This document shows positions 14,574 to 62,653 of a stretch of 64,000 nt of DNA, piece by piece. Position numbers and translations under genes: made by a program. This DNA is from Candidatus Melainabacteria bacterium. Lineage in GTDB: Bacteria > Cyanobacteriota > Vampirovibrionia > 2-02-FULL-35-15. Numbering within the stretch: the stretch's first letter is position 1; the number at the start of each line of letters is the position of its first letter. The stretch is taken from NCBI GenBank assembly GCA_023250195.1, contig JAHFBF010000001.1:406661-470660 (forward strand), given 5' to 3'. The notes below the pieces were generated by a model. It ran no database searches. It saw only the letters and a list, made by a program, of their open reading frames with translations, and was not told the origin of the DNA.

Positions 14574-14608
14574 CAGCGTAGAGACACAGTTACCGCGTCT
14601 CTACGCTG
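14574..14608 (-). terminator. 12-bp stem hairpin overlapping the stop of 14601..14894
   Basis: CAGCGTAGAGAC-N11-GTCTCTACGCTG between the LuxR-type gene and the PMM gene start. Confidence 0.4.
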
Positions 14609-14894
14609 TCTTTACTTCTTGTTCTTTTTTCTTTTCAACAGCGGAACTTAATAATCCGGAATAGATTGCAATTGCTGTAGCCTGTGATCTATTTGAGATT
14701 TTTAATTTTATAAAAATACTTGAAATATGATTTCTCACAGTTGAAGGACTTAATATTAAGCATTCAGATATTTGCTTATTAGTCTTTCCTTGTCCAAGAT
14801 GAACCAAAACCTCTTTCTCTCTGTTTGTTATAGGAAGATTAGACAGCCTATCTACAAAACTTAAATCCATAACATCGTTTTCTTTTATGCCCAT
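14601..14894 (-). CDS. LuxR/GerE-family HTH transcriptional regulator (single-domain)
   Basis: C-terminal LuxR-type HTH: REKEVLVHLGQGKTNKQISECLILSPSTVRNHISSIFIKLKISNRSQATAIAI. Confidence 0.8.
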   Translation of the reverse strand: MGIKENDVMDLSFVDRLSNLPITNREKEVLVHLGQGKTNKQISECLILSPSTVRNHISSIFIKLKISNRSQATAIAIYSGLLSSAVEKKKEQEVKTA

Positions 14895-15279: not shown

Positions 15280-15579
15280 TTAATTTACTGCAGGCACCGG
15301 TTCATCTTTTTCAAATGGACTTAGATTCAATAGACCTGCATAAATAGCTATTGCTGTAGCTTGAGATCTATTAGAAATATTTAATTTATTAAATATACTG
15401 GATATATGATTTCTAACAGTAGAAGAACTCAACACCAGCACTTGGGATATTTGTTTGTTCGTCTTGCCTTGAGCAAGGTGAACTAATATTTCTTTTTCCC
15501 TTTTAGTAATTGGTAGCTCAGTTATTCTGTTTACAAATCCAAGATCGAGAAGAGGACTTTCTTTTAATTGTAATTCCAT
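15280..15579 (-). CDS. LuxR/GerE-family HTH transcriptional regulator (paralog of 14601..14894)
   Basis: REKEILVHLAQGKTNKQISQVLVLSSSTVRNHISSIFNKLNISNRSQATAIAIY, nearly identical HTH to the neighbour. Confidence 0.8.
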   Translation of the reverse strand: MELQLKESPLLDLGFVNRITELPITKREKEILVHLAQGKTNKQISQVLVLSSSTVRNHISSIFNKLNISNRSQATAIAIYAGLLNLSPFEKDEPVPAVN

Positions 15580-18889: not shown

Positions 18890-20161
18890 ATGAGTATTGT
18901 TGAAAATATTACCCGTGCGTTTAAACATAAAAATTACAGAAATTTTTTTTTCTGGCAGTTCTTATCATTTACTGGGACATGGCTTCAAAATACTGCACAA
19001 AGCTGGCTTATATATCGCCTAACTGGCTCTGCTTTATTTTTAGGTCTGGTTAGCTTTGCAAGTTCATTGCCTGCATTAATACTTGCACCAATATCCGGAG
19101 TAACTGCCGATCGGTTTAACAGAAGAGATATACTGCTTACAACCCAAATATTATGCGTAATACAGGGAGTAATTTTGTCAGCGTTGTTTTTTAGTGGCCA
19201 TATAAACAAATGGCAGATTTTAATTCTTGCGATTTTTCTTGGCATGGCAAATTCTTTTGATGTTACAGCCAGACAAACATTTATTCCGCTTCTTGTTACA
19301 AAAGGCGATCTTTTAAATGCAATTGCACTTAATTCATCCATGTTTAATGCAGCCAGAATCATCGGTCCGGCACTTGCCGGAATATTAATATCAAAATACG
19401 GTGAAGGCGTTTGTTTTATTTTAAATGTACTTAGTTATTTGCCTTTTATTGTATTTTTATTTCTTGTAAACATAAAAGAACAAAAAGCAAAAGAGTTTAC
19501 ATCTTCATTAGCACATTTAAAAGAAGGTATTTCATTTGCCTGGAATGCACTGCCTATAAGAAATTTGCTTCTTTTACTTGGCATATATAGTCTTTTCGGT
19601 ATGTCATTTACAACCTTAATGCCGATTTTCAGCGATCAGATATTACATAAAGGAGCAAAAGGACTTGGAATATTAATGGGAGCATCAGGGATTGGTGCTG
19701 TAGTTGGAGCATTGTTTTTAGCATCCAGAGAAAAGGTTCTTGGCATAAAAAAAATAATTGCTCTCTGCAGTGTAGTATCAAGCATTTGTATCTTTATTTT
19801 TGCTTTTTCAAAAATATATTTGCTTTCAATCTCACTCCTAACCATAATAGGATTCTGTTCAATCATAATAATCTCAGGCAGCAATACTGCAATGCAGGCA
19901 ATGTCTCCTGACAACTTGCGAGGAAGAGTTATCGGGCTTTTTTCAATGATGTTTATGGGAATATTTCCGCTTGGCAGTTTAACTGTAGGCTTTTTAGCAC
20001 ACATGTTAGGTGCACCAATAGCTGTCTCAATCGGAGCTGTGATTTGCTTCTTGATGGCAATATATTTTTCAATGAAAGTTCCAATGTTGACTAAAAAAGC
20101 TAAGGAGCTGATTTGCACACAGGAAAGAGCAGGTATTGTAATAGAAGAACAGATTAGTTAA
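18890..20161 (+). CDS. MFS transporter
   Basis: 12-TM hydropathy pattern; loop 2-3 motif GVTADRFNRRDILL typical of major facilitator superfamily. Confidence 0.85.
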   Translation: MSIVENITRAFKHKNYRNFFFWQFLSFTGTWLQNTAQSWLIYRLTGSALFLGLVSFASSLPALILAPISGVTADRFNRRDILLTTQILCVIQGVILSALFFSGHINKWQILILAIFLGMANSFDVTARQTFIPLLVTKGDLLNAIALNSSMFNAARIIGPALAGILISKYGEGVCFILNVLSYLPFIVFLFLVNIKEQKAKEFTSSLAHLKEGISFAWNALPIRNLLLLLGIYSLFGMSFTTLMPIFSDQILHKGAKGLGILMGASGIGAVVGALFLASREKVLGIKKIIALCSVVSSICIFIFAFSKIYLLSISLLTIIGFCSIIIISGSNTAMQAMSPDNLRGRVIGLFSMMFMGIFPLGSLTVGFLAHMLGAPIAVSIGAVICFLMAIYFSMKVPMLTKKAKELICTQERAGIVIEEQIS

Positions 20162-20454
20162 GTTTTTTTCAATTCTAATTTTATACTTGCTAATTCTGAC
20201 AAGACTCTATCCATCTTATTTTCAAGTCTATCAACTCTCTTTTCAACAGATCCAATTTTTTCGCCAAGAGAACCTATACTTTTATCCATGGATGTCAGTC
20301 CAAAGCTGTTCCATGATGTGGCCAAAAAAATTGAAAGCATAATCGGTAAAGTCATCTGAATAAATGGAGTATTTTTCCAATTTTCAAGGAATCCAACCTT
20401 TAACTCTAAAGCTTTTACTCTTTGTTCAATAGGATCAATCATAGCTTTATTCAT
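20158..20454 (-). CDS. hypothetical small membrane/coiled-coil protein
   Basis: ORF only; one hydrophobic segment flanked by heptad-like charged regions. Confidence 0.35.
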   Translation of the reverse strand: MNKAMIDPIEQRVKALELKVGFLENWKNTPFIQMTLPIMLSIFLATSWNSFGLTSMDKSIGSLGEKIGSVEKRVDRLENKMDRVLSELASIKLELKKT

Positions 20455-20922: not shown

Positions 20923-21132
20923 TTATTGTTTTTTTGCTTTTTTATGTTTCTTTGTTTTCTTTGTTGACTTTTTTTTCTTTGGAGTTTCGTTTTCACTATC
21001 TTCCAAAGCTGCAGTTTGGACTTCCTGAACACCTGCGCTAAGCTGTTCTGAAGCTGTTTTTATCTCTTGTGCTTTTACAGAAGCATTAAGAAACAAAGAT
21101 ACAGCACAAAGTGCGATTATTGTTTTTTTCAT
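20923..21132 (-). CDS. small secreted Lys-rich protein
   Basis: Internal Met (MKKTIIALCAVSLFLNASVKA) gives a signal peptide; the ORF-track N-terminal extension to 21228 runs through inverted repeats and is probably not translated; C-terminus poly-Lys. Confidence 0.4.
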   Translation of the reverse strand: MKKTIIALCAVSLFLNASVKAQEIKTASEQLSAGVQEVQTAALEDSENETPKKKKSTKKTKKHKKAKKQ

Positions 21133-21337
21133 TTTCTTCTCCTTATTGTTTCTACCAGAAAAATCCCTACGAGATTTTCCCTTTCCCTTTCCGGCATGCA
21201 AGATATTCTTCCTCAGAACATCTTGCACTTATATTTTGTACATGAGAAAAATTTCTCATGTCCCGGCTCAGAAAAAAAATTATATTAAAAAAGAGGATTT
21301 GATTTCAATAGATGATCCTGTAAATTCTTTATAAATC

Positions 21338-21404
21338 TGTAACCGTAGGTTACACGAATTGATAAAAAATTTTTAAGGTTCGTGAAATGTAACCGTGGGT
21401 TACA
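21338..21404. promoter_or_regulatory. pair of 17-bp palindromes TGTAACCGTAGGTTACA and TGTAACCGTGGGTTACA (operator-like)
   Basis: Two TGTAAC-N5-GTTACA sites with 50-bp centre spacing; the same motif pair recurs at 41284..41330. Confidence 0.5.
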
Positions 21405-22874: not shown

Positions 22875-24785
22875 TTATTTTGTTCTTGCTCTTCTATCTC
22901 TAGTTAATGCAAGATCTTTAGATAATATAGTTCTTTCCGTTGCAAGAACTACTACTGAATTTCCCAAATCTATCATTGAACCTGATAGGGTAAATTTAAC
23001 TGTAATAACCCCGTTTTTATTTACCGTTACCTGTTCATCTCCTTGACTTATGCCGCTTGGGAATACAGTAGCAACAATATCATTGGTGATACTGTTAGCA
23101 GTTTTGTTGTGCAGTCCTTTCCTTGCAGCAACTAAAGAACGACCTCTTAAGGTTATAGTAGCTTTGTTGCCATGATGTACATTCAAAGACAATCTTCTTA
23201 TTACAGTAGGGCTTACAAGAGGATTAAAGTTAATTATCTCAATAATTCCACTTAGTGAGAGTCCATTACTTAAATTAAATGAAAATACTGCATCGCCTGT
23301 ACTGACTGCATTCCCATCTGGTAAAAGCAGAGTAAGAATGTATTTGTTAGGTTCATTAGAAATACTCATTATTTCATACTGAAGATCATTGAATACATTT
23401 CCATTACTGGATGAAAGGCTTAAAGAGAGTATTTCTGTATCTATTAAGGGCAATGAAGACCTAATTTCAAAAGATGGGTTAGAACCAGGATAAGCAGTTC
23501 CAACTTTCCCAATAAACTCATCTGGAATTAATGGAAGTTCAACTGCATTTGGTAGTTTTGGAGTTCCTGTAATATCGATATCATATCCTCTTCCTGCTTC
23601 AAAGCCACCGGAGGAAGAACTAGAAGAGGAACTACTAGAAGAAGAGCCGGAAAATTGGTCTGTTCCTAAATTCCCTGAAGATGAAGTTCCTGGTACACAT
23701 TCCGGGAGATTCGAACAAATTTCTGGATTAAATTCACAGCAGCCAAATATACAGCAGTTGTTTCCGCACATTGTCCATTGACAGTCTGGAACGTTAGATA
23801 TTCCTCCTCCTCCTACAGGTACACAAACTGGGGCAGGATTGTTACAGAGTAGTGCTTCTTGATGACGAATAACTGTTCGAGTAGGTAAATTGTCTCCTAC
23901 TGTACAACAGGCAGGTGTATTCTCTGAACAAGATGGTGAACCTAAAGAAGGGCAAGCAGGAGTAGAACCAGTAGGACATGTTACTGCTCCATCTACACAA
24001 CTTATACCACCTGAAGAAGAACCTCCTGATGATGTAGAACTTGAAGTTGTTGATGATGTTGAGCTTGTTGAACCTGATGTTGAACTTGAAGTGCTTGATG
24101 TTGAGCTTGAAGTGCTTGATGTTGAGCTTGAAGTGCTTGATGTTGAGCTTGTTGATGATGATGTGCTAGAAGAACCATGATGATCATCGTCGTCATCATC
24201 ATGACCGCCTGTTGATGATGTACTACTTGATGTTGAGCTTGTTGATGATGATGTGCTAGAAGAACCATGATCATCATCGTCATCATCATGACCGCCTGTT
24301 GATGATGTACTGCTTGATGTTGAACTTGAAGTGCTTGATGTTGAGCTTGAAGTACTTGATGTTGATGAGTTAGATCCTGAAGTCGATGAGTTGGATCCTG
24401 ATGTTGATGAACTAGAACTTGATGCAGGATCACACTTAACCTTGTCATCACACATTGACATAGAATCACAACAATTTGGTTCTCCATCTATGCAAGATAA
24501 AGTATCCATACCACTACATGATGCTACTTCTCCACTAGTACAAAAAACATTCCCATTGGAACAAAATGCAGTTTCTTTATCTTTCTTTGTCTTTATTGAA
24601 TGTGAAGTTCGTGATATAGAAGTGTAATTTCTATTTCTACCATTTGAATATGCTTGTGCTGCAGAATAATCTTTTGTCTTGAATAGAGCCAGTGTTGGTA
24701 AATTAAGAATTAATATTAAAGTAAGACTAACTAAAAATTTAAAGGCCTTTAATTTGATGTTTTTATTTGATTCTTGATTTTGCAT
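22875..24785 (-). CDS. secreted mucin-like Ser/Thr-rich, Cys-rich repeat protein
   Basis: Start taken at the Met preceded by AAGGA (signal/anchor KAFKFLVSLTLILILNLPTLALF); long (SST/SSS)n tracts, repeated GGHDDDDDDHGSSSTSSS units, Cys-rich blocks at both ends. Confidence 0.7.
   Translation of the reverse strand: MQNQESNKNIKLKAFKFLVSLTLILILNLPTLALFKTKDYSAAQAYSNGRNRNYTSISRTSHSIKTKKDKETAFCSNGNVFCTSGEVASCSGMDTLSCIDGEPNCCDSMSMCDDKVKCDPASSSSSSTSGSNSSTSGSNSSTSSTSSSTSSTSSSTSSSTSSTGGHDDDDDDHGSSSTSSSTSSTSSSTSSTGGHDDDDDDHHGSSSTSSSTSSTSSTSSSTSSTSSSTSSTSSSTSGSTSSTSSTTSSSTSSGGSSSGGISCVDGAVTCPTGSTPACPSLGSPSCSENTPACCTVGDNLPTRTVIRHQEALLCNNPAPVCVPVGGGGISNVPDCQWTMCGNNCCIFGCCEFNPEICSNLPECVPGTSSSGNLGTDQFSGSSSSSSSSSSSSGGFEAGRGYDIDITGTPKLPNAVELPLIPDEFIGKVGTAYPGSNPSFEIRSSLPLIDTEILSLSLSSSNGNVFNDLQYEIMSISNEPNKYILTLLLPDGNAVSTGDAVFSFNLSNGLSLSGIIEIINFNPLVSPTVIRRLSLNVHHGNKATITLRGRSLVAARKGLHNKTANSITNDIVATVFPSGISQGDEQVTVNKNGVITVKFTLSGSMIDLGNSVVVLATERTILSKDLALTRDRRARTK
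24001..24420 (-). repeat. tandem coding repeats (Ser-tract and HD6H units)
   Basis: Repeated GATGTTGAGCTTGAAGTGCTT and CATGATCATCGTCGTCATCATCATGACCGCC blocks; the opposite-strand ORFs 23890..24180, 24002..24487 and 24331..24627 are artefacts. Confidence 0.8.
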
Positions 24786-24950
24786 TTTAATATCCTTAAT
24801 TTCCCTTGAAACTTCTAAAACTACTAGAAGTAAAATCATATGACACAGTTAATACAAAGTCAATAAATCCTAAAAGTTAATTTTAGATCTTAAGCATTAA
24901 TCTTAAACTCTTTATGTTTAGCTTTAGATATATCTATATAAGATTAAAAA

Positions 24951-25015: not shown

Positions 25016-27964
25016 CTACTGCCCTGCAGGGAAGTCACAAATTACACGGAAGCCACGAGTACTCCCTGTAGCTGTAGTTTGATTTCTAAAGTCTGCTGTA
25101 ATAGGCGATGTAGCATCACTGGTTGAAGTATAATTTCCTCCACGAGTTATTGCATATTGAGCATCAGTACTATCCGTAAACAGTTTACCGCTATTCTTAC
25201 CACCATTTAAGTCAGCAGTAGCTCCAGATTGTGTTGGAAGACCTGATCCTTCAAAGTCTATGTCTACAGCAGCAGCACCACCTGCAATATCCTGAAAATT
25301 AAAGACACTGTTGTTTGTTGTAAATGGCAGTACTATTCCAGCTCCTGGATAGCCAGAATCAACTATAAAATCTGAACCACCAGACATAGAAGAATTTGTA
25401 ATCGTAAGGTCTCCCCATTCTTCTACATTACCAATCAAGTCATATACCTGCTTATCACCATCAAATGCACTATTTGAGTTAGTTACATCATCAGCTATTG
25501 CACTGGATGCAAATGTAGTACCATCAGTATTCTTAGTAGCTGAACCATCCAAAATATGTCCCCAGCTTTTAAAGCCAGTACCAGTTAAACATCTATCTCC
25601 AGTACCACTTTGATTTGGATCATCAGCACATTGGAATGAAGCACTATTTCTTAGATCTCTGTTTCCATCCCTGGTATTTCCTCTTTCATTCCAACCATTT
25701 GTAGCGGTTGCACCAAAGATGCTTTTTTGTTTTGCAAATCTGCCCAGTATATAAAGTGCTGTCCATTCCTTATTTCCAATAAGTTTACACGATCCTAAAG
25801 ATGAAATTTGGGCACTGGAAGCAGATGCGTTTGCTTTTGCAGTTGAGTGGCTTATGTTAGTCCAAGGTACTACATTTCTCTGACTGACAGGAATAGAAGA
25901 ACTGCCCTCTGCGGTAGCAGTAGCATCTGCTTTTGATGCTTCATATTTATTAATCCAGAAACCCCCAAAAACAATTCCATTAATAATAAATCTTGGTATT
26001 CTTACCATTCTTGTTGTACAAAGTGAAGATGGTGATACATCACATGAGCTTGTTGAGAAGGTCTTTTCATCTGAGTATGAATTCCAGCTAGAGGAAACTT
26101 CCTGAACTGTAGGAATATCATTTGCTCCTTGGCAGTCAGCCACTGTACATGACCCACTTACGTTTATATCTTCAGTAGCTGTATCACATGAACCATTGCC
26201 GTTTAAATCCCAGCAATTTAAACCATTAGTTCCATTGGTACCGTTAGTTCCGTTGGTTCCATTTGCTCCATTAGTCCCATTGGTTCCATTTGCTCCGTTG
26301 GTTCCATTAGTTCCATTACAGACATAATTTGTTGCTGTGACTTCACCGGAATCTAAAGTATTGTCATTATTTGAATCAAGCCCTGATTCTACTTTCTTGC
26401 CACCAGTAGAACAATTTGTTCCTGCTGATTCTGTAGTAATCTTTACCAAACTGTTTAAACCATTAGTTCCATTGGTACCGTTAGTTCCGTTGGTTCCATT
26501 TGCTCCATTAGTTCCGTTAGTTCCGTTAGTTCCATTGGTTCCATTACAGACATAATTTGTTGCTGTGACTTCACCGGAATCTAAAGTATTGTCATTATTT
26601 GAATCAAGCCCTGATTCTACTTTCTTGCCACCAGTAGAACAATTTGTTCCTGCTGATTCTGTAGTAATCTTTACCAAACTGTTTAAACCATTGGTTCCAT
26701 TGGTACCGTTAGTTCCATTGGCTCCGTTTGCTCCATTGCAGACAAAAGATGTTGAACTTACTTCACCAGAATCAAGCACACTATTTCCATTAGCATCAAG
26801 ACCAACTTCTATTTTTCTTCCACCTGTTGCACAATTTGCTCCGGCTGATTCTGTGGTTGATTTTGTAAGTGCATTATTTCCACCCATTCCATCACTACCA
26901 TTGCTTCCTGCATTTCCAGCAGTTCCAAGTGGAATAGTAAAAGTCAGGTTACAAAGAACCGGATCAAAAAACGCATCAGCCTTTGTCCCTGGTGCACCAT
27001 TATTTGCTGAGATCATTAATAATGCATTTAGATCATTACAGACACCCATACCATCCATGCCATTAATCCCATCCATTCCATCCATAATTACAACGGTAGG
27101 GATAGTTTCAGGAGACAAACTATTTGTTCCAAGGGTCTGATTATTTACAAATACTCCACCTACAATAGTTACTGTTGAGTTAAGAATCGGACTTGTAATA
27201 GTTATATCTCTAGATCCAACTGGAGCATCACTTTTCGGAGTAGCTAACACATCCAAAGTTGAATCATCTAAAGCTATAGTCTCTCTTACAGTAATATCAT
27301 TATTGCTGAATGAAACTTCTGTAAATGCATCTAATCCTTTACCTTTAATTGTAAGTTTATTTTCTACCCCGGCCTTTAGATCCCGTGTTATTGAATCAAG
27401 CCTAAACTCAGGTAGAGTAAACACAATCGTGTCAGCAGAATCATTGCCATCAACAGTAGCTCTTAAAGTATATTGGCCTGGTTTTAACCCTTTTACAAAA
27501 ATTTTGAATATTTTAAAGTCCAGGGCCTGAACTATTGAGCTTTGATTTTGAGTTTTATTTAAATTAAACGTAACTGATTGATTTTTTGTAACTATTTTAT
27601 TTTTACCTGTTTTTATTAAGTTTTGATCTTCTCTAAGCTCTGATATTCTAAATATCTTTAATCCAGTCATTAAAAGTGTGGCATTGTCAATTCCAAGACC
27701 TGTTCCCTGTGCACCAATAACTTCTACTTTTACAACCATTGCATCAGGCTTAAGTAACAGATCCAGGGATACTCTTTGATCAAGTTCTATATTATTCCTG
27801 TTATATCTGAATGCCGGCAATAAATTAGCTGATATTCTCTCTTGAGAAATTGTACTTCTGGCTTTTACTGCATAAATATTAACTGCATAAGCAGCACCGC
27901 TTTGATTCAGCAGAAGTACAGCTATTAATACAACCTTACATAGAAGACTTAACTTATTTTTCAT
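25016..27964 (-). CDS. giant secreted protein: conserved N-domain, Gly-Thr-Asn triplet tracts, Asp-rich repeat modules, C-terminal FGE-sulfatase (SUMF1)-like domain
   Basis: Signal peptide; N-terminal 330 aa nearly identical to 28187..32443; (GTN)n tracts; about 45-aa modules ...TESAGTNCSTGGKKVESGLDSNNDNTLDSGEVTATNYVCNG; C-terminal FGE-type motifs MVRIPRF...WINKYEAS, NKEWTALYILG, QVYDLIGNVEEW, TRGGNY...GFRVICD. Confidence 0.85.
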   Translation of the reverse strand: MKNKLSLLCKVVLIAVLLLNQSGAAYAVNIYAVKARSTISQERISANLLPAFRYNRNNIELDQRVSLDLLLKPDAMVVKVEVIGAQGTGLGIDNATLLMTGLKIFRISELREDQNLIKTGKNKIVTKNQSVTFNLNKTQNQSSIVQALDFKIFKIFVKGLKPGQYTLRATVDGNDSADTIVFTLPEFRLDSITRDLKAGVENKLTIKGKGLDAFTEVSFSNNDITVRETIALDDSTLDVLATPKSDAPVGSRDITITSPILNSTVTIVGGVFVNNQTLGTNSLSPETIPTVVIMDGMDGINGMDGMGVCNDLNALLMISANNGAPGTKADAFFDPVLCNLTFTIPLGTAGNAGSNGSDGMGGNNALTKSTTESAGANCATGGRKIEVGLDANGNSVLDSGEVSSTSFVCNGANGANGTNGTNGTNGLNSLVKITTESAGTNCSTGGKKVESGLDSNNDNTLDSGEVTATNYVCNGTNGTNGTNGTNGANGTNGTNGTNGTNGLNSLVKITTESAGTNCSTGGKKVESGLDSNNDNTLDSGEVTATNYVCNGTNGTNGANGTNGTNGANGTNGTNGTNGTNGLNCWDLNGNGSCDTATEDINVSGSCTVADCQGANDIPTVQEVSSSWNSYSDEKTFSTSSCDVSPSSLCTTRMVRIPRFIINGIVFGGFWINKYEASKADATATAEGSSSIPVSQRNVVPWTNISHSTAKANASASSAQISSLGSCKLIGNKEWTALYILGRFAKQKSIFGATATNGWNERGNTRDGNRDLRNSASFQCADDPNQSGTGDRCLTGTGFKSWGHILDGSATKNTDGTTFASSAIADDVTNSNSAFDGDKQVYDLIGNVEEWGDLTITNSSMSGGSDFIVDSGYPGAGIVLPFTTNNSVFNFQDIAGGAAAVDIDFEGSGLPTQSGATADLNGGKNSGKLFTDSTDAQYAITRGGNYTSTSDATSPITADFRNQTTATGSTRGFRVICDFPAGQ
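26221..26317 (-). repeat. hexanucleotide (GTTCCR/TTGGTN) tract encoding (Gly-Thr-Asn)n
   Basis: CCATTAGTTCCATTGGTACCGTTAGTTCCGTTGGTTCC...; further tracts at 26458..26548 and 26688..26740; the opposite strand reads PLVPLVP (artefact ORFs 26337..26555, 26565..27140). Confidence 0.85.
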
Positions 27965-28186: not shown

Positions 28187-31100
28187 TTAGAAGTCACAGA
28201 TTACACGGAATCCACGACGCTCGTCAGTAGTAGTAGTCACATCATTACCATCAATTATAAGTGGTGAAGGAGCACTGGCACCATCATTACAAGCACCACC
28301 ACGAGTTATACCGTATTGTGCATCTGTTGTAGTTGTAGAAAGAGTTCCTGAATTCTTCCCGCCATTTGTATCATTCAAGCCACCATTTGCAGTAGCAGGA
28401 AGTCCAAGTCCACTAAAAGTAGATGATGTTGATATATCTATAGAGTTAAAGATCGCTCCATCTGTCGTAAATGGAAGCACTGATCCTGCTCCTGTATAGC
28501 CAGTATCAACTACAAAGTCTGAGCCAGACATGGTAGAAGAATTTGTAAAAGTATAGTCAATCCATTCTTTTACATTTCCAACAAGATCATAGACCTGTTT
28601 ATCACCATCCAAAGTATCAGCACCTGATCCACCATTGTCATCTTTAACAGCATCTGCTGTACTACCAAGTGAAGTACCTGTCGCATTTATAGTAGCTGAA
28701 CCATCTAAAAGATGTCCCCAGCTCTTATAACCTGTTCCAGTTAAGCAGACATCGCCAGTACCACTTTGATCTGGATCATCTTCACATACAGATGAACCAC
28801 TATCTCTGCCATCTCTGTTTCCATTTCTGGTATTCCCTCTTTCATTCCAACCGTTTGTAGCAGTTGAACCAAAGAGTCCTGTACTTTTTGCAACTTTACC
28901 AAGAATATAAAGAGCAGTCCACTCTTTCATTCCTATAAGTCTGCATGAACCAATACCAGTAATTTGTCTATTTAAACTAGATGCATTTGTCTTTGCAGTA
29001 GCCTGACTTATGTTTGTCCATGGCTCTACTCTACGTTGGCTTACAGGTACACTAGAAGTTCCTTGATCTGTTGCTGTAGCATTTGCTCTAGAAGCTTCAT
29101 ACTTGTCTATCCAGAAACCACCATACTCTACACCTTTATAAGTAAACTTTGGTATTTTTACCATTCTAGTCATACTGCTCATGTCATTTGTAGTGTAGTT
29201 TACTTCATCAGATAAAGTATTCCAGTTATTCACCAAACCGATAATTGCTGCTTCCTGGCAATCATCAGCTGTATATAAACCGTCATTATTTACATCTTCA
29301 GCTGCATCATTTACACCATCTTCATCTACATCCCAGCAGTTAATTCCATTAGTTCCATTTGAACCATTGGTTCCGTTTGTACCATTAATTCCATTACAGA
29401 CATAGCTGGTAGAAGCGATTTCACCACCAGTTAGCATATTGTCATTATTTGCATCAATACCGGCTTCCACTTTCTGACCGCCAGCTGTACAGTTTGCACC
29501 TGAACCTTCAGATGTTACAACAACTAAGCTAGTTGAGCCATTGGTTCCGTTAGTACCATTAGTTCCATCAGTTCCAGCACAATCAGCAACGTCTACTACA
29601 GTATCACCATTTAGATCTTCAGTTGCTACATCACCTACTCCATTATTATTTAAATCCCAGCAGGCTTGTCCGTTGGTTCCATTAGTACCGTTAGTTCCAT
29701 TAGTTCCGTTGGTTCCGTTAGTACCATTGGTTCCGTTTGTACCATTAGTTCCATCAGTTCCAGCACAATCAGCAACGTCTACTACAGTATCACCATTTAG
29801 ATCTTCAGTTGCTACATCACCTACTCCATTATTATTTAAATCCCAGCAGGCTTGTCCATTGGTTCCGTTGGTTCCGTTAGTTCCATTGGTTCCGTTAGTT
29901 CCGTTAGTTCCGTTGGTTCCGTTAGTTCCATTAGTTCCGTTGGTTCCGTTTGTACCATTGGCTCCATTACAGACATAGTTTGTAGAAGTAATTTCACCAC
30001 CAGCTAAAGAACCATTATTATTTGTATCCAGTCCAGATTCTACTTTTTTCCCACCATTAGCACAATTTGCACCAGCTGATTCTGTAGTAACCTTTACCAA
30101 GCTGTTCAAACCGTTGGTTCCATTTGTACCATTAGTTCCGTTGGTTCCGTTTGTACCATTGGCTCCATTGCAGACATAGTTTGTAGAAGTAATTTCACCA
30201 CCAGCTAAAGAACCATTGCCATTTGTATCTATTCCAGATTCTACTTTCTTTCCACCATTAGCACAATTTGCACCGGCTGATTCTGTAGTAATCTTTACCA
30301 AACTGTTCAAGCCATTGGTTCCGTTAGTTCCGTTAGTACCATTAGTTCCATTTGTACCGTTGCATACATAAGTAGTTGATGTAATTTCTCCTCCACTTAA
30401 AGAACCATTGCCATTTGTATCAACCCCACTCTGTATCTTCTTTCCACCATTAGCACAGTTTCCACCTGGGTTTTCATTTGAGGATGTTACAAGTGTTTGT
30501 AAACCATTGCAAACATATGATGTAGCATCAACTTCTCCCGAGTCAAGAGTACTATCACCATCATCATCTACTCCTACCTGAATTTTTCTTCCACCGTTTG
30601 CACAGTTTCCACCTGGGTTTTCATTTGAGGATGTAATTAAACTGTTTGATCCATTACATGCATAAGTCGTAGAGTCTATTTCACCTGCATCAAGTGTGTT
30701 ATCTCCATCATCATCTACTCCTACGCGAATCTTTCTACCACCGCTTGGACAGTTTGCTCCAGATGGTTCGCTTGAAGATGTAATTAAACTGTTTGATCCG
30801 TTACATGCATAGGTTGTAGAGTCTATTTCACCTGCATCAAGTGTGTTATCTCCATCATCATCTACTCCTACGCGAATCTTTCTACCACCGCTTGGACAGT
30901 TTGCTCCAGATGGTTCGCTTGAAGATGTAATTAAACTGTTTGATCCGTTACATGCATAAGTCGTAGACTCAACTTCTCCAAGATCAAGAACATTGTCTCC
31001 GTCATCATCTACTCCTGCCTGAAATTTTCTACCACCACTTGGACAGTTTGCTCCGGATGGTTCGCTTGAGGATGTAATTAAACTGTTTGATCCATTACAT

Positions 31101-32443
31101 GCATAGGTCGTTGATGTAATTTCTCCACTATCAAGAACACCACTTCCATCAGTGTCAGTACCAACTTCAAACTTTTGCCCACCGCTTGGACAGTTTGCTC
31201 CGGATGGTTCGCTTGATGTATTAGTTAAACTATTTTCACCTGCAGGAATACCAAGAACTAAAGTACACAAAATAGAATTAAAAGTAGTAGTAGCTGCTAA
31301 ACCTGGCGCAAGGGTAACATTTGAAATTACAAGTGTTGCATTCATATCATCACAAACACCCATTCCATCAGATCCATTACTTCCATTAATTCCATTAAAA
31401 CCTACAGGAATGCTGAAAGTAAGGTTACAAAGAACTGGATCAAAAAACACATCAGACATTGAACCTGGGATTCCATTGTTTGTAGTAATCATTAATAAAG
31501 CATTCATATCATCACAAACACCCATTCCATCCACGCCATTCATACCATCCATAATTACAACAGATGGATTAATGTTTGCATTATCAGGAGATAAACCATT
31601 TGTTCCAAGGGTCGGATTATTTACAAGTACTCCATTTACTATAGTGACCGTATTGCCAGTAAGCGGACTTGTAATAGTTACATCTCTATAACCATTTGGG
31701 GCATTACTTGTTGAAGTTGCCAATACCTTTAAAGTAGAATCATCTAAAGCTATGGTATCTCTTACAGTAATATCACCATTGCTGAATGAAACTGCTGTTA
31801 ATGCATCCAATCCTTTTCCTAGAAGTGTAAGTGTAGTTTCAACACCGGGATTTATAACTGATGGGGTTACTGCATCCAGTCTAAAGTTTGGCCTTGTAAA
31901 CACAATCGTGTCAGTAGAATCATTATCATCAATAGTAGCTCTTACAGTATATTGGCCAGGAAGACGTCCTTTTACAAATACTTTGAATATTTTAAAGTCC
32001 AGAGCCTGAACTATTAAGCTTTGATTTTGAGTTTTATTTAAATTAAAAGTAACTGATTGATTTTTTGTAACTATTTTGTTCTTGCCTGTTTTTGTCAACT
32101 TTTGATCTTCTCTAAGCTCTGATGTTCTAAATATCTTTAATCCACCCATTAAAAGTGTGGAATTATCAATTCCAAGGCCTGTTCCCTGTGCACCAATAAC
32201 TTCTACTCTTACAACCATTGCATCAGGCTTAAGTAACAGATCCAGGGGTATTCTTTGATCAAGTTCTATATTATTCCTGTCATATCTGAATGCCGGCAAT
32301 AAATTAGCTGATACTCTCTCTTGAGAGATTGTAGTTTTGGTTTTAACTGCATAAATATTAACTGCATAAGCAGCACCGGTTTGATTCAGCAGAAGTGCAG
32401 CTATTAACACAACCCTACATAGAAAGCTTAATTTATTTTTCAT
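28187..32443 (-). CDS. giant secreted protein, paralog of 25016..27964 (expanded repeat modules, C-terminal FGE-sulfatase-like domain)
   Basis: 1418 aa; same signal peptide and N-domain; at least 7 tandem 45-aa modules SLITSSSEPSGANCPSGGRKxxVGVDDDGDNTLDAGEIDSTTYACNGSN (three nearly identical); (GTN)n tracts up to 13 triplets; duplicated CWDLNNNGVGDVATEDLNGDTVVDVADC units; C-terminal YDLVGNVKEW / GFRVICDF. Confidence 0.85.
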   Translation of the reverse strand: MKNKLSFLCRVVLIAALLLNQTGAAYAVNIYAVKTKTTISQERVSANLLPAFRYDRNNIELDQRIPLDLLLKPDAMVVRVEVIGAQGTGLGIDNSTLLMGGLKIFRTSELREDQKLTKTGKNKIVTKNQSVTFNLNKTQNQSLIVQALDFKIFKVFVKGRLPGQYTVRATIDDNDSTDTIVFTRPNFRLDAVTPSVINPGVETTLTLLGKGLDALTAVSFSNGDITVRDTIALDDSTLKVLATSTSNAPNGYRDVTITSPLTGNTVTIVNGVLVNNPTLGTNGLSPDNANINPSVVIMDGMNGVDGMGVCDDMNALLMITTNNGIPGSMSDVFFDPVLCNLTFSIPVGFNGINGSNGSDGMGVCDDMNATLVISNVTLAPGLAATTTFNSILCTLVLGIPAGENSLTNTSSEPSGANCPSGGQKFEVGTDTDGSGVLDSGEITSTTYACNGSNSLITSSSEPSGANCPSGGRKFQAGVDDDGDNVLDLGEVESTTYACNGSNSLITSSSEPSGANCPSGGRKIRVGVDDDGDNTLDAGEIDSTTYACNGSNSLITSSSEPSGANCPSGGRKIRVGVDDDGDNTLDAGEIDSTTYACNGSNSLITSSNENPGGNCANGGRKIQVGVDDDGDSTLDSGEVDATSYVCNGLQTLVTSSNENPGGNCANGGKKIQSGVDTNGNGSLSGGEITSTTYVCNGTNGTNGTNGTNGTNGLNSLVKITTESAGANCANGGKKVESGIDTNGNGSLAGGEITSTNYVCNGANGTNGTNGTNGTNGTNGLNSLVKVTTESAGANCANGGKKVESGLDTNNNGSLAGGEITSTNYVCNGANGTNGTNGTNGTNGTNGTNGTNGTNGTNGTNGTNGQACWDLNNNGVGDVATEDLNGDTVVDVADCAGTDGTNGTNGTNGTNGTNGTNGTNGTNGTNGQACWDLNNNGVGDVATEDLNGDTVVDVADCAGTDGTNGTNGTNGSTSLVVVTSEGSGANCTAGGQKVEAGIDANNDNMLTGGEIASTSYVCNGINGTNGTNGSNGTNGINCWDVDEDGVNDAAEDVNNDGLYTADDCQEAAIIGLVNNWNTLSDEVNYTTNDMSSMTRMVKIPKFTYKGVEYGGFWIDKYEASRANATATDQGTSSVPVSQRRVEPWTNISQATAKTNASSLNRQITGIGSCRLIGMKEWTALYILGKVAKSTGLFGSTATNGWNERGNTRNGNRDGRDSGSSVCEDDPDQSGTGDVCLTGTGYKSWGHLLDGSATINATGTSLGSTADAVKDDNGGSGADTLDGDKQVYDLVGNVKEWIDYTFTNSSTMSGSDFVVDTGYTGAGSVLPFTTDGAIFNSIDISTSSTFSGLGLPATANGGLNDTNGGKNSGTLSTTTTDAQYGITRGGACNDGASAPSPLIIDGNDVTTTTDERRGFRVICDF
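29670..29970 (-). repeat. hexanucleotide tracts encoding (Gly-Thr-Asn)n plus duplicated about 190-bp unit
   Basis: GTTGGTTCCATTAGTACCGTTAGTTCC... tracts at about 29670..29760 and 29858..29970 flanking duplicated ...CAGCACAATCAGCAACGTCTACTACAGTATCACC... units; the opposite-strand ORF 29541..29978 is an artefact. Confidence 0.85.
30470..31210 (-). repeat. tandem about 135-bp coding repeats (45-aa Asp-rich modules)
   Basis: Repeated ...TCCACCTGGGTTTTCATTTGAGGATGT... and ...GGACAGTTTGCTCC(A/G)GATGGTTCGCTTGA(A/G)GATGTAATTAAACTGTTTGATCC... blocks; boundaries approximate. Confidence 0.75.
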
Positions 32444-41283: not shown

Positions 41284-41330
41284 TGTAACCAGGAGTTACA
41301 TTTAGATTGAGTTTGTAACCCTGGGTTACA
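41284..41330. promoter_or_regulatory. pair of 17-bp palindromes TGTAACCAGGAGTTACA and TGTAACCCTGGGTTACA (operator-like)
   Basis: Two TGTAAC-N5-GTTACA sites 30 bp apart in the divergent promoter region between 40256..41185 and the ORF6N gene. Confidence 0.5.
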
Positions 41331-41359: not shown

Positions 41360-41917
41360 TTGATAAAAATAATTTTATGCTTTAATAAAGCACTAATTAT
41401 GAGAACTATCTTAATTCCAGAAGAAAAAATTGAAAATAAAATCTTCCTTATGAGAGGAAAAAGAGTAATGCTAGATAAAGATTTAGCTGAACTTTATGGA
41501 GTAAAGACCAAAGTTTTAAATCAAGCTATAAAAAGAAACATGGAAAGATTTCCTGAAGATTTTATGTTTCAATTGACAAAAGAAGAGGCTAATTCTTTAA
41601 GGTCACAATTTGTGACCTTAAAACGTGGAGAACATTTAAAATATCTGCCTTATGCCTTTACAGAACAAGGTGTAGCTATGCTATCCTCTGTTTTAAATTC
41701 CAAAAGAGCAATTCAAGTAAATATCCAGATTATGCGGATATTTACAAAGCTTAGAGAAGTCATAGCCAACAATAAGGAAATTATGCAAAAGCTTAATCAA
41801 CTTGAAAGTAAAATTGAAAAACACGATTCAGAAATTCAGTCTATCTTTGAAGCAATCCGGCAATTAATTTCTATTCCGGAAAAACAAAAAAGAAAGGTTG
41901 GTTTTTATACAAATTAA
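41360..41917 (+). CDS. ORF6N (KilA-N-related) domain DNA-binding protein
   Basis: MRGKRVMLDKDLAELYGVKTKVLNQAIKRNMERFPEDFMFQLTKEE...YLPYAFTEQGVAMLSSVLNSKRAIQVNIQIMRIF is a near-consensus ORF6N domain; coiled-coil C-terminus. Confidence 0.85.
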   Translation: MIKIILCFNKALIMRTILIPEEKIENKIFLMRGKRVMLDKDLAELYGVKTKVLNQAIKRNMERFPEDFMFQLTKEEANSLRSQFVTLKRGEHLKYLPYAFTEQGVAMLSSVLNSKRAIQVNIQIMRIFTKLREVIANNKEIMQKLNQLESKIEKHDSEIQSIFEAIRQLISIPEKQKRKVGFYTN

Positions 41918-43725: not shown

Positions 43726-44472
43726 TCAAATTAATATTCTGCTCTTCTTTAATACACTAACTAATTTCATAGCTTCTTTCTCAAAATTCTTATAATTACT
43801 CTTATCCACCTGGTAAGCATTTGCCAGGAAATATATAACCATATCAATTGATAACCCGGATTTTAAAAGTTCTATAAATGCAAAACTACTTGTTGAAAGC
43901 TCAAAAAATCTTACATTGAAATTCTTTGGATCCCGATAAATTAGAACATTTGTTATTTGTTTATATATCTTCCCTAAAGGTTGATTATTTTCAATCATTT
44001 CAACAATTTCAGGAATTGCATATTGAAAAGCACAAATCTCATGTACTGGATTCAAGCAAAGAGTCTTATTAGCTTTCTTAATTCCTTCTTTCTCATATAT
44101 TTTCACTTCAAGCCATTCATAACATGCAAGTTCACTTATAAAAGGATAGTTTTTTAAGATGTCTTTTCTCGTAAATAAATATTCGGGTAAATGCTCAACT
44201 ACTTTATTAAAAATTGGAGAGCCTGGCGGATATTTTTCCAAATAATCAGATAATAAATCGTCCCAAATTTTACTCAATAACTTATAAGTCACCGGATAAA
44301 TATTTACAGATAAATCGTGAAAAGAACCTCTGACTAATTCACGGTAAATTTTTATTCTTTCAAGGATTGACCTGGATAAACCTTTAACTTTATTTTTTTT
44401 ACTCCAGACAGAATCAAATAGAATCAAATCTTTAATTACTTTTTGAGTTTTTTTTAGACTATTTAAAGTCAC
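43726..44472 (-). CDS. DUF2063-family partner protein of the MNIO enzyme (HvfC/BufC-like)
   Basis: Start overlaps the MNIO stop (translational coupling); N-terminal half follows the DUF2063 pattern (IYRELVRGSFHDLSVNIYPVTYKLL...YPPGSPIF...LPEYLF...PFISELACYEWLE). Confidence 0.65.
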   Translation of the reverse strand: MTLNSLKKTQKVIKDLILFDSVWSKKNKVKGLSRSILERIKIYRELVRGSFHDLSVNIYPVTYKLLSKIWDDLLSDYLEKYPPGSPIFNKVVEHLPEYLFTRKDILKNYPFISELACYEWLEVKIYEKEGIKKANKTLCLNPVHEICAFQYAIPEIVEMIENNQPLGKIYKQITNVLIYRDPKNFNVRFFELSTSSFAFIELLKSGLSIDMVIYFLANAYQVDKSNYKNFEKEAMKLVSVLKKSRILI

Positions 44473-45347
44473 TAAGCCGCCTTCTTAAAAGATTTCATAA
44501 TAGTCTTGATTTTTTTTATTTCATTGAGCAGTTCTGAGAACTTTGGGAAATTAAAATCCCTTTCCAGCAATACTGCTTTTGGTGTGCATCTTTTTAAAAG
44601 TTCACCAAATAAATTGTAAACATCTCTGATAATTGGTTCACCATGCGTATCAATAATAATTTTCCCTCTGTTTAAATGCCCTGCTATATGTACCTGTACA
44701 GTACGTTCAATAGGAATACTATCCAAAAACCTTATCGGGTCATATTTATGATTTTTACTGTTTACATAAACATTATTTATATCTAGAAGTAACCCACAAT
44801 CTGCTTTTTCAAGGATTTGTGAAATGAAATCTGCTTCACTCATTTCATTATCTATAACCATATAATAAGAAGGATTTTCAATCAAAAAAGGAACCTGGAA
44901 AATATCCTGAGCTTTTTTTATTCTATTTACTAAATGTTTGACTGTAACTTTGTTATAAGGTAAAGGAATCAAGTCATGAATGTATGTTTTCTCAACATAG
45001 TTAAAACATAAATGATCACTAAACCATGAGGGGTCTATAATTTTAAAAAGCTTTTTTACGTTATTAATTAAAGCCGGATCAAACGGTTCTGTACCACCAA
45101 TTGAAAGATTTAATCCATGAGGAATAATTGGAAAATATTTTTTAGCATTTACAAGCCTTTCAAATATTTCTCCACCACGACAGATATAATTCTCAGGAGC
45201 AATTTCAAGCCAGTCAATTTGATTTTTATGTCTCAGAATAGGGCTATATAACTCTCTTCTTAGTCCAAGTCCAACCCCAAAATTTGGTAATTTATTTTTT
45301 TCTTTTTGAAATGTTTTTCCCATCACCGCCACATTGACCTTCACCAC
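44472..45347 (-). CDS. MNIO (multinuclear non-heme iron-dependent oxidative enzyme, DUF692), RiPP-modifying
   Basis: Ordered DUF692 hallmark motifs: FGVGLGLRRE, WLEIAPENY, HGLNLSIGG, FSDHLCF, FLIENPSYY, LLLDINNVYVNS, VQVHIAGH, IIDTHGEPI, AVLLERDFNFP. Start uncertain (GTG 45347 or ATG 45323). Confidence 0.85.
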   Translation of the reverse strand: MVKVNVAVMGKTFQKEKNKLPNFGVGLGLRRELYSPILRHKNQIDWLEIAPENYICRGGEIFERLVNAKKYFPIIPHGLNLSIGGTEPFDPALINNVKKLFKIIDPSWFSDHLCFNYVEKTYIHDLIPLPYNKVTVKHLVNRIKKAQDIFQVPFLIENPSYYMVIDNEMSEADFISQILEKADCGLLLDINNVYVNSKNHKYDPIRFLDSIPIERTVQVHIAGHLNRGKIIIDTHGEPIIRDVYNLFGELLKRCTPKAVLLERDFNFPKFSELLNEIKKIKTIMKSFKKAA

Positions 45348-62055: not shown

Positions 62056-62367
62056 ATGGCAAAGAAAGAATCACTAAATAAAAACTGGACCGAAATTGGT
62101 GTGGTAAATGGCCCTGATCTTCAAAATAGGATCGTTATAACTCCTATTGTAACTTGGTTAAAACAACATATTGATAGCTTCAAAGTATTTATAAACTCTA
62201 GTGGTAATGTACTTTTAAAACCAATGATTAGTCTTCCGCTAGAAGAAGCATGGCCTTATCAAGATCCCAAGATATTATCCAACGTTCTAAAAGGTATCGA
62301 GGAAGCAAAAGCAGGAAAAGCCAAGCCATTTGATTTAAAAAAATTAAAAGAATTAGATGATGTTTAA
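62056..62367 (+). CDS. putative type II antitoxin (AbrB/MazE-like swapped-hairpin)
   Basis: RIVITPIVTWLKQHIDSFKVFINSSGNVLLKP resembles the SpoVT/AbrB fold; stop overlaps the start of the downstream toxin-like gene. Confidence 0.45.
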   Translation: MAKKESLNKNWTEIGVVNGPDLQNRIVITPIVTWLKQHIDSFKVFINSSGNVLLKPMISLPLEEAWPYQDPKILSNVLKGIEEAKAGKAKPFDLKKLKELDDV

Positions 62368-62653
62368 TATCAAATTAACTCCTTTAGCTTTGAAACAATT
62401 GGAGGAGATAAAAAAACGAGAGCCAAGGCAAGGATTACTAAAGCAAATCATAAAGACAATCAGATTTTTAAGTGAAAATCCAAGACATCCTTCTTTGCAT
62501 ACTCATAAAAATCAAAGGTTGAGCAATCTACATGGTTTAGATATTTTTCAAGTATATGCACAGAACTACACTTCAGGTGCTTACCGTATCTTCTTTACTT
62601 ATTCTGCTAAAGATGAAATTACTATTACTTCTATAGAAGCACATCCAGATTAG
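62357..62653 (+). CDS. putative type II toxin (RelE/ParE-superfamily-like)
   Basis: 98 aa basic protein; C-terminal ...SGAYRIFFTYSAKDEITITSIEAHPD resembles the RelE/ParE C-terminal pattern; 11-nt overlap with the upstream small gene. Confidence 0.45.
   Translation: MMFNIKLTPLALKQLEEIKKREPRQGLLKQIIKTIRFLSENPRHPSLHTHKNQRLSNLHGLDIFQVYAQNYTSGAYRIFFTYSAKDEITITSIEAHPD

Follow-up and report, generated by a model that had tools for sequence, protein, structure and literature searches.

What do two pairs of perfect palindromes in the genome of a bacterium related to the cyanobacteria do, and to which genes do they belong? The question is raised by a 64,000-nucleotide stretch of contig JAHFBF010000001.1 from Candidatus Melainabacteria bacterium (the window; all positions are numbered within it), in which the 17-bp palindrome TGTAAC-N5-GTTACA occurs as a pair upstream of an operon encoding a small Lys-rich secreted protein and a single-stranded DNA-binding protein, SSB (site 1), and again as a pair upstream of a gene for an ORF6N-domain protein (site 2). 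To our knowledge, nothing is known of gene regulation in Melainabacteria, which are uncultured, non-photosynthetic relatives of cyanobacteria. A sequence-only reading of this DNA had taken the palindromes for operators of a dimeric transcription factor that define a small regulon. Here, we have followed the motif through related genomes and found the same pair at fixed positions in the promoters of a recurring set of genes. The palindromes are strongly conserved promoter elements and most likely the sites of a putative dimeric helix-turn-helix-type regulator, probably an activator, of a clade of Melainabacteria, with two dimers probably cooperating at each pair.

In the window, which has a GC content of 34.8%, the palindrome has four exact matches where 0.01 are expected, and none of 100 shuffled sequences reached four. 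The two copies that had been noted 50 bp apart upstream of the Lys-rich gene are exactly where they had been placed, and the recurrence of the pair at 41284..41330 is confirmed as well, there with a spacing of 30 bp (spacings are given from start to start). Neither pair is inside a gene: site 1 is flanked by the stop codon of a gene for a 439-aa membrane protein and the start of the minus-strand Lys-rich/SSB operon, and site 2 by a methyltransferase gene and the ORF6N gene, which point apart. When two mismatches were allowed, only four further matches appeared, which is about chance level, and isolated half-sites are no more frequent than base composition would predict (49 found, ~44 expected). 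The signal therefore resides in the complete, paired palindromes.

A scan of the paired pattern over 596 Gb of genomes returned 100 stretches, against a chance expectation of ~0.1 by our own calculation, and a stricter scan of metagenomes returned 33 more, including ~25 contigs of the Melainabacteria-type group. In total, ~45 pairs of the window's type were found in low-GC Melainabacteria-type genomes and metagenome contigs, where they recur ahead of orthologous as well as unrelated genes. The metagenome-assembled genomes (MAGs) that share the motif flavour and spacing of the window go under the names Candidatus Melainabacteria or Caenarcanales, except for one with the label Gammaproteobacteria that has the same genes. 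They stem from groundwater samples, and assemblies with the motif include GCA_016201905.1/JACQBQ01, JAHFBG01, JAHFBE01, MFRN01, JAGVKQ01 and CAZRTB01. The proteins of the window are 75-94% identical to, and syntenic with, those of related motif-bearing loci, so that it almost certainly belongs to this clade. The MAG with the deviating label, CAZRTB01 (loci L005, L006, L050 and L068), is listed as 'uncultured Gammaproteobacteria' and has a GC content of 31-34%; it carries the Melainabacteria-type motif, the ComM promoter, ORF6N and the miniproteins described below, and its label is probably wrong.

From 86 distinct sites the motif was refined to A-TGTAAC(C/T)-S-W-S-(G/A)GTTACA-T, in which the inner C/G at positions -2/+2 is strongly conserved; the distal palindrome of site 2, TGTAACCAGGAGTTACA, carries the minor A variant at position +2 that is found in ~12% of sites. 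The length of the centre is strict: in 317 kb of low-GC loci there are 97 sites with N5 and none with N0-N4 or N6-N11. Equally restricted are the spacings within pairs, which fall at 29-32 bp (13 pairs), 39 bp (one pair) and 48-51 bp (29 pairs). These classes correspond to 3, 4 or 5 helical turns, so that both sites of a pair lie on the same face of the helix. A string search of the literature for the motif gave no match apart from the N4 motif of HcpR2, to which we return below.

Clusters of TGTAAC-N5-GTTACA are also found in other phyla. Collinsella has arrays of 5-6 sites at 21-22 bp (L001, L014, L026, L046, L067, L073, L076, L080, L082, L083, L092 and L100); Ignavibacteria/Bacteroidota (L015, L017, L037, L044 and L045) and WOR-3/Stahlbacteria (L024, L028, L031, L036, L060 and L088) have triplets with a GAAAC/ATTTT centre; in Nocardioides (L004, L008, L020 and others) each genome holds many pairs, which have mirror-image centres and a spacing of 53-55 bp; and Clostridia and Gilliamella have clustered repeats of their own. 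We considered whether these belong to the same system and rejected it, as their spacings and central bases are different and their contexts phage- or plasmid-like; the clusters were set aside because these contexts are heterogeneous and mostly of that kind, some being unexplained.

The genes preceded by the pairs fall into a few recurring groups. ComM/YifB follows nine pairs, the Lys-rich/SSB operon seven (the site-1 orthologs), ORF6N about eight, as at site 2, and 70-aa two-helix membrane miniproteins about 18; RhuM/Fic, GIY-YIG, OsmC, zinc dehydrogenase, DUF4127 and a 72-aa protein follow one or two pairs each. In three loci (L122, L126 and L133) ORF6N and the Lys-rich/SSB operon diverge from one shared pair. 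The RhuM/Fic and ORF6N proteins match the candidate defence families PDC-S05/PDC-S23. The miniproteins, which begin with the consensus MITEEQKYxSGIxKNIGFAFLAPxGS... and are ~70 aa long (L033, L038, L041, L068, L071, L072, L086, L106, L112, L116, L118, L120, L123, L124, L129, L006 and L025), occur as several paralogs per genome, each with its own palindrome pair and predicted leaderless promoter. They have no match in Pfam or PHROGs, and only eight relatives, none of them named, were found among 5.8 billion protein clusters. Neither ComM nor miniprotein genes are present in the window. As a whole, the genes marked by the pairs form a set specific to the lineage, concerned with DNA handling, mobile elements and tiny membrane proteins. 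None of the ~45 pairs adjoins lexA, recA or uvrA, nor nitrogen-assimilation genes (glnA, amtB/nrgA etc.), and no pair met so far has dprA, comEA, comEC or a pilin gene as its neighbour.

The position of the pairs relative to promoters was obtained from an unbiased count of -10 elements in both flanks of every pair, whatever the annotation. Of 90 flanks, 25 have an extended -10 that starts at an offset of exactly 19 from the palindrome, where chance would give 0.36 per offset. This places the proximal palindrome at ~-50..-34 (centre ~-42). In this -42 class the distal palindrome is centred at -72, -81 or -91, as counted from the predicted -10. Read in the direction of the downstream gene, all ComM promoters and most miniprotein promoters share one layout, which consists of palindrome, 32-33-nt AT-rich spacer, palindrome, 18 nt, TGnT(A/T)nnnT, 6-10 nt and start codon, without a -35 element and without a Shine-Dalgarno sequence. 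RhuM/Fic and some ORF6N copies also belong to the -42 class, whose transcripts would be leaderless or nearly so. In a second class, which is smaller, TGcTT(T/A)AAT comes 47-56 nt downstream of the palindrome, and the centres are at ~-71/-101 (window site 2, L102, L057 and L128). In the third class, that of the Lys-rich/SSB promoters, a near-consensus TTGAAA-18-TATA(A/C)T starts 29-30 nt after the palindrome, and the centres are at ~-74/-124. An AT-rich spacer module related to that of site 1 is present in the ComM and miniprotein promoters in either orientation.

The ComM promoters also show how the arrangement changes with divergence. Within the clade, ComM proteins range from 92% down to 59% identity; below this, other phyla begin at ~52%. 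Over the range of the clade the palindromes gradually lose their perfection, while the proximal one is retained together with the 18-nt gap and the extended -10. At 70% identity (L164) the proximal site is perfect and the distal one, 50 bp upstream, has two mismatches; at 63% (L163) only a proximal site with two mismatches is left; at 60% (L162) there is one mismatch in each of two sites 51 bp apart, with a TGTACC variant; and at 59% (L161) a proximal site with two mismatches is accompanied by a weak distal candidate (three mismatches) 39 bp upstream. This pattern argues for a selected regulatory element of which the proximal site is the essential one.

How could such an element work? We propose that each 17-bp palindrome is bound by one dimer of a putative helix-turn-helix-type regulator specific to a clade of Melainabacteria, and that two dimers, on sites 3, 4 or 5 helical turns apart, would share one face of the DNA and probably act cooperatively. 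In the -42 class the proximal dimer, helped by the second one at -72, -81 or -91, would replace the missing -35 element and recruit RNA polymerase, as do class II/III CRP-type activators, lambda CI at PRM or DriD; transcription would begin at the start codon or beside it. Window sites 1 (~-74/-124) and 2 (~-71/-101) are in positions that suggest class-I-like upstream activation. As to the signal, DNA stress or foreign DNA, from transformation or phage, is our guess from the gene content (ComM, the SSB without an acidic tail, mutL, GIY-YIG and the defence and mobile-element genes).

The same positions bear on a rival explanation, that the palindromes are operators of a repressor, divergent LexA-like or Xre/DdrO-like, whose dimers bind cooperatively and which gives way to de-repression on DNA damage. 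Its gene content would be that of a damage regulon, which ssb, comM, mutL, GIY-YIG and small membrane proteins do resemble, and at promoters without a -35 element polymerase could also be blocked from a site at -50..-34. A further point for it is mutL in L034 (JACQBQ010000022, 700-746), where a pair spaced by 30 bp lies on the start of the gene, the ATG being at the middle of the proximal palindrome and TGcGACAAT, an extended -10, between the two. The sites would here span ~-37..-21 and ~-7..+10, and so overlap the -10/-35 region and the start codon. However, repressor sites normally vary in position, while here 25 flanks have exactly the same distance to the -10; most target promoters have no -35 element, as is typical of activator dependence; and a simple repressor would be ineffective from the sites of the window and of ten other promoters, which are 60-130 bp upstream of the start. 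Polymerase cannot be occluded from positions -71 to -124. A search of the window and the fetched loci gave no LexA homolog, and none of the ~45 pairs was found to adjoin recA, lexA or uvrA. For these reasons activation is favoured, and we regard a repressor as unlikely, if still deserving attention. The core of the sequence-only reading, that these are sites of a dimeric regulator which define a regulon, has strong comparative support, the same pair being found at fixed promoter positions in many related genomes; the positions fit an activator better than the operator of a classical repressor.

Several points weigh against the activator as we have drawn it. The binding protein is putative, and every transcription start was placed by consensus matches. 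The promoter at site 1 is already near-consensus (11 of 12 positions), and its need for an activator is not evident. That the sampled sites are nearly all perfect palindromes is partly because the loci were fetched by exact matching. The miniprotein promoters are paralogous and hence not fully independent evidence, and the theme of the regulon rests on few annotated genes. Finally, the repressor-like geometry at mutL, a single case, is opposite to that of all other targets; it would suggest a dual-function regulator, in which the protein that activates elsewhere may also repress mutL.

The features of the two window sites are collected in Table 1, together with other features of the window.

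Table 1. Features of the palindrome sites, the genes they precede and other parts of the window
Feature	Window positions	Strand	Position relative to start	Evidence or remark
Site 1 distal palindrome TGTAACCGTGGGTTACA	21388..21404		centre ~-124 from inferred operon start	exact match
Site 1 spacer, 33-nt AT-rich module TTTCACGAACCTTAAAAATTTTTTATCAATTCG (minus-strand reading)	21355..21387	-		conserved in orthologs
Site 1 proximal palindrome TGTAACCGTAGGTTACA	21338..21354		centre ~-74, from predicted promoter	exact match
Block between palindrome and -35 (GATTTATAAAGAATTTACAGGATCATCTA)	21309..21337	-		conserved in 6 orthologs
Sigma-70-type promoter TTGAAA-18-TATAAT	21279..21308	-		predicted; 11/12 consensus matches
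5' leader with Y-shaped RNA: outer CCGG stem, hairpins 21240-21261, 21196-21228, 21157-21181	21133..21272	-		
Lys-rich secreted protein gene, 69 aa, signal peptide, KKKKSTKKTKKHKKAKKQ tail (operon gene 1)	20923..21132	-		
SSB gene, 118 aa	20505..20861	-		Pfam SSB 2e-23; PHROG 44
Membrane and coiled-coil protein gene, 98 aa (operon gene 3)	20158..20454	-		kept downstream of SSB in L122, L126, L133
Site 2 distal palindrome TGTAACCAGGAGTTACA	41284..41300		centre ~-101 from inferred ORF6N start	exact match
Site 2 proximal palindrome TGTAACCCTGGGTTACA	41314..41330		centre ~-71, from extended -10	exact match
Extended -10 TGCTTTAAT of inferred ORF6N promoter	41378..41386	+		48-56 nt after proximal palindrome
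ORF6N-domain gene	41399..41917	+		Pfam ORF6N 6e-38; PHROGs anti-repressor; PADLOC PDC-S05 2e-66
ORF6N internal palindrome, core GGTCRCAAWTTGYGACC	41601-41617			extends to 25 nt (41597-41621)
Paralogous stand-alone GerE/LuxR-type helix-turn-helix protein genes (97 and 99 aa), 385 bp apart	14601-14894 and 15280-15579	-		
Run of genes for very large secreted proteins	22875-24839, 25016-27964, 28187-32443	-		
MbnB/TglH/ChrH-family enzyme gene, then DUF2063 gene	43726-45323	-		
ParE-type toxin gene (98 aa), preceded by overlapping 103-aa open reading frame	62056-62653			

At site 1, the predicted promoter would start transcription of the Lys-rich/SSB operon at ~21272. We aligned six orthologous site-1 promoters, whose SSB proteins are 75-94% identical, and found that all 14 specified palindrome positions, the spacer, the TTGA of the -35 and the ATATA of the -10 are invariant. 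The sequence upstream of the distal palindrome is unalignable among the six. The upstream gene varies between orthologous loci and the downstream gene is constant. The conserved spacer could act as an UP-like element or a bend. Within the block GATTTATAAAGAATTTACAGGATCATCTA, ATTTACA is half-site-like and may form a weak third site centred at ~-55.

Site 1 also bears on the possibility that the palindromes are repeated DNA or RNA elements, such as repeats of the repetitive extragenic palindrome (REP) or miniature inverted-repeat transposable element (MITE) kind, DNA-uptake sequences, recombination sites, or terminator hairpins of the upstream gene. They are perfect, hairpin-forming palindromes with many copies per genome, site 1 directly follows the stop codon of the 439-aa gene, and the TGTAAC-N5-GTTACA clusters of other phyla resemble phage or plasmid iterons. 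Against this, the palindromes are not followed by a T-run and no terminator was called at either site; Rfam has no match at the sites, a tRNA being its only match in the whole window; the flanks outside the pair are not conserved, with the downstream gene constant and the upstream gene variable; and no transposase or integrase is associated with the pairs. On viral contigs there was no Melainabacteria-type pair, and the sites of L147 are inside a phage gene. The exact offset to the -10 and the helical phasing are, moreover, properties of promoters. We consider a repeat element extremely unlikely.

Further inverted repeats had been noted as following the palindromes. They exist downstream of the predicted promoter, as CATGAGAAA/TTTCTCATG at 21241-21260 and TGCAAGAT/ATCTTGCA at 21197-21227, but they are arms of RNA hairpins in the 5' leader and not operators. 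The 143-nt leader has a minimum free energy of -46.2 kcal/mol (z = -6.0), and none of 200 shuffled sequences folds as well. Leaders of the orthologs are ~107 nt shorter and have a single covarying hairpin, with compensatory changes in 5 of 13 pairs. It is the base of this hairpin that pairs with the Shine-Dalgarno region, and the leader may thus control translation or act as a stability element. The Lys-rich protein itself has no match in Pfam or PHROGs, and its orthologs are preceded by the same palindrome pair in six other loci. The window SSB ends in ...SLDSKKKPA and lacks the acidic tip of canonical bacterial SSBs. We observe that this tail-less SSB is always in one operon with a secreted peptide that has a poly-Lys tail. 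Speculatively, the peptide could be a periplasmic DNA-binding partner, a combination that recalls a competence-type SsbB with a DNA receptor.

At site 2, the extended -10 of the predicted ORF6N promoter recurs as the same element at the same offset in L102, which also precedes ORF6N, and at an offset of 47-48 in L057 and L128. Judged by its matches, the ORF6N protein is a phage anti-repressor-like protein that falls into the candidate defence family PDC-S05. It had been named as a candidate for the regulator that binds the palindromes, and it could in that case autoregulate and control the other genes. In favour of this are its predicted DNA-binding domain, the presence of the motif upstream of all eight Melainabacteria-type ORF6N copies examined, and the divergent arrangement with the Lys-rich/SSB operon across one pair in three loci. 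Its relatives, however, tell a different story. Members of the ORF6N subfamily share 65-80% identity across phyla, while the motif is restricted to a single clade, and upstream of five ORF6N genes (65-73% identical) in four contexts outside Melainabacteria no TGTAAC-type palindrome was found even with three mismatches. These motif-free contexts are Omnitrophica (L135/L137 and L166), Elusimicrobiota (L138) and an unclassified MAG (L168, two genes). Since close homologs in other phyla do without the motif, ORF6N appears to be a regulated target rather than the regulator.

Moreover, the ORF6N genes carry a different palindrome of their own. Its core GGTCRCAAWTTGYGACC lies ~200 nt into the coding sequence and is present in every gene of the subfamily in three phyla, including L005, L089, L102, L133, L135, L138, L139, L166 and L169. 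It is kept by covariation, with double changes in 3 of 12 pairs and none broken, and is maintained despite a Val/Ala change in the protein (TCA..GTG to TCG..GCG). These observations suggest a function at the nucleotide level; the palindrome may be the DNA site of ORF6N itself, an mRNA hairpin or a recombination site. Extra copies of GGTCRCAAWTTGYGACC are found upstream of the ORF6N gene in L166 (934-950) and L090 (630-646), and in L166 a second palindrome with the same core lies 31 bp away, upstream of the gene. With these copies, GGTCRCAAWTTGYGACC is a better candidate for the ORF6N target than TGTAAC-N5-GTTACA, and we hold it very improbable that ORF6N is the protein that binds the pairs.

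ORF6N loci also show signs of rearrangement. In L090 (472-1242) the order after a palindrome pair is a truncated ORF6N remnant (MANLIPIEKIESKIFIINRI*), a copy of the ORF6N palindrome and an intact ORF6N gene, which is evidence of turnover or recombination at these loci; L122 and L126 carry an ORF6N pseudogene as well.

Searches for other regulators gave no candidate. With E. coli and B. subtilis queries for LexA, CRP and RecA, phmmer found nothing relevant in the window or in ~160 kb of loci, and approximate probe sequences for TnrA, the MerR-type GlnR and GlnA had no match in the window or loci. Clustering of all 60-420-aa open reading frames within 3.5 kb of the pairs revealed no recurrent DNA-binding family other than ORF6N. 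For degenerate or single sites that could mark the regulator's own gene, a scan with up to two mismatches over 326 kb gave one extra site, the partner of a known one. Among the regulators of the window, the two solo GerE/LuxR proteins, an OmpR-type response regulator and the DUF2063 protein were rejected, as none of them is preceded by the palindromes or has a homolog in the other loci.

Taken together, it is conceivable that these observations describe the first cis-regulatory network reported for Melainabacteria, in which a dual-function regulator would answer foreign DNA or DNA stress by switching on ComM, the tail-less SSB with its periplasmic Lys-rich partner, candidate defence genes (ORF6N and RhuM/Fic) and the miniproteins, and by turning down mutL, as a natural-transformation or phage-response programme. 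We put forward this joint picture tentatively, being doubtful that it will hold as a whole.

Some other features of the window may be recorded here (Table 1). The pair of GerE/LuxR-type proteins adjoins a sulfite/nitrite reductase gene and has no link to the palindromes. Of the run of very large secreted proteins we note that one, of 654 aa, is Ser/Thr-rich and Cys-rich, with repeated GGHDDDDDDH motifs and no Pfam match, and that two giant ones have 3 and 9 DUF7151 repeats together with collagen-like repeats. The MbnB/TglH/ChrH-family gene encodes an enzyme of the kind that modifies ribosomally synthesized and post-translationally modified peptides (RiPPs), and with the DUF2063 gene it has the appearance of a RiPP-like biosynthetic pair. 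The ParE-type toxin gene and the open reading frame before it are probably a type II toxin-antitoxin pair.

The palindrome pair is a sharply defined cis-element that is easily scanned for. Its rigid grammar, with paired 17-bp dyads, no -35, an extended -10 and a predicted leaderless start, would join ComM, a special SSB, mobile-element and defence genes and orphan miniproteins into one co-regulated set. Both a search for the regulator and the question of a competence-like or damage-like response in Melainabacteria are thereby made testable, and a first functional context for the miniproteins and the Lys-rich secreted protein comes within reach. Its value is that of an entry point.

How does the arrangement compare with known systems? 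In E. coli, CRP acts near -41.5 at class II promoters and at -61.5, -71.5 or -92.5 at class I promoters, and tandem promoters combine -41.5 with -90.5 on the same face. With centres counted from the predicted -10, our pairs are similar to the CRP/FNR family in having a site centred near -42 in place of the -35 and upstream sites at ~-71/-72 and -91 on the same face. Their half-site GTAAC/GTTAC is identical to that of the predicted CRP/FNR-type site of HcpR2, GTAACnnnnGTTAC, which reads GTAAC-N4-GTTAC (Rodionov et al. 2005, PMC1274295). Unlike that of HcpR2, the regulon is unrelated to hcp or nitrosative stress, and unlike the sites of the family (xxA-N6-Txx) the palindrome reads TAA-N7-TTA, with a centre of 5 nt instead of 4 and not one N4 site among 97. 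As a 5-nt centre breaks the 5-6-5 geometry of CRP/FNR, membership in this family is not supported.

The TnrA/GlnR box of Firmicutes is TGTNA-N7-TNACA, and GlnR can both activate and repress through two sites (e.g. PMC6191146). It is likewise 17 bp long with the same outer bases, and TGTAA-N7-TTACA formally fits its consensus; unlike it, our sites have a conserved inner C/G at -2/+2 that lies outside the TnrA consensus as written, and no nitrogen-assimilation regulon follows them.

A 7-3-7 architecture is also known from lambda CI, which binds 17-bp operators as cooperating dimers, activates PRM from OR2 centred at ~-42 and represses other promoters. Our pairs share with OR2/PRM the 17-bp 7-3-7 site, the ~-42 position and, as proposed here, the cooperation of neighbouring sites. 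The lambda operators, however, are 24 bp apart in a prophage immunity region, whereas our pairs are 30-50 bp apart and scattered over chromosomal genes, and a search of the window and the fetched loci gave no protein of the CI/S24 type.

Other likenesses lie in the targets. The CRP-S/Sxy regulon of Haemophilus and Vibrio contains comM and ssb, ComK of Bacillus recognizes two dyads separated by integral helical turns, and the competence SsbB of B. subtilis has no acidic tail. Our pairs resemble these competence regulons in having comM and ssb as targets, in their ComK-like phasing of two dyads and in an SsbB-like tail-less SSB; they differ in motif, and most of their targets are orphan miniproteins and genes of mobile-element type. 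LexA boxes are GAAC-N4-GTTC in Gram-positive bacteria and RGTAC-N3-DGTWCB in cyanobacteria, and comM is said, after Erill et al., to be a LexA target in Alphaproteobacteria. A palindromic site ahead of ssb and comM is common to the LexA/SOS system and ours, but the spacing is different and our sites are in fixed, activator-like positions, with only those of mutL (L034) overlapping the core promoter.

DriD, a WYL-domain activator of the SOS-independent DNA-damage response in Caulobacter, binds ATACGAC-N7-GTCGTAT, and its targets include the small membrane protein DidA and DNA-processing genes (PMC13004042). As with DriD, our palindromes keep a fixed distance from the -10, take the place of a missing -35 and have small membrane proteins among their targets. 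Unlike the DriD site, which is 7-7-7, 21 bp long and single, the Melainabacteria site is 7-3-7 and paired, and no WYL-domain protein was found among the window proteins scanned with Pfam. By analogy of position and targets, DriD would be the closest functional analogue of the Melainabacteria pairs. The regulon and its cis-element are new; the element is of a familiar kind, transcription-factor sites, and calls for no new principle.

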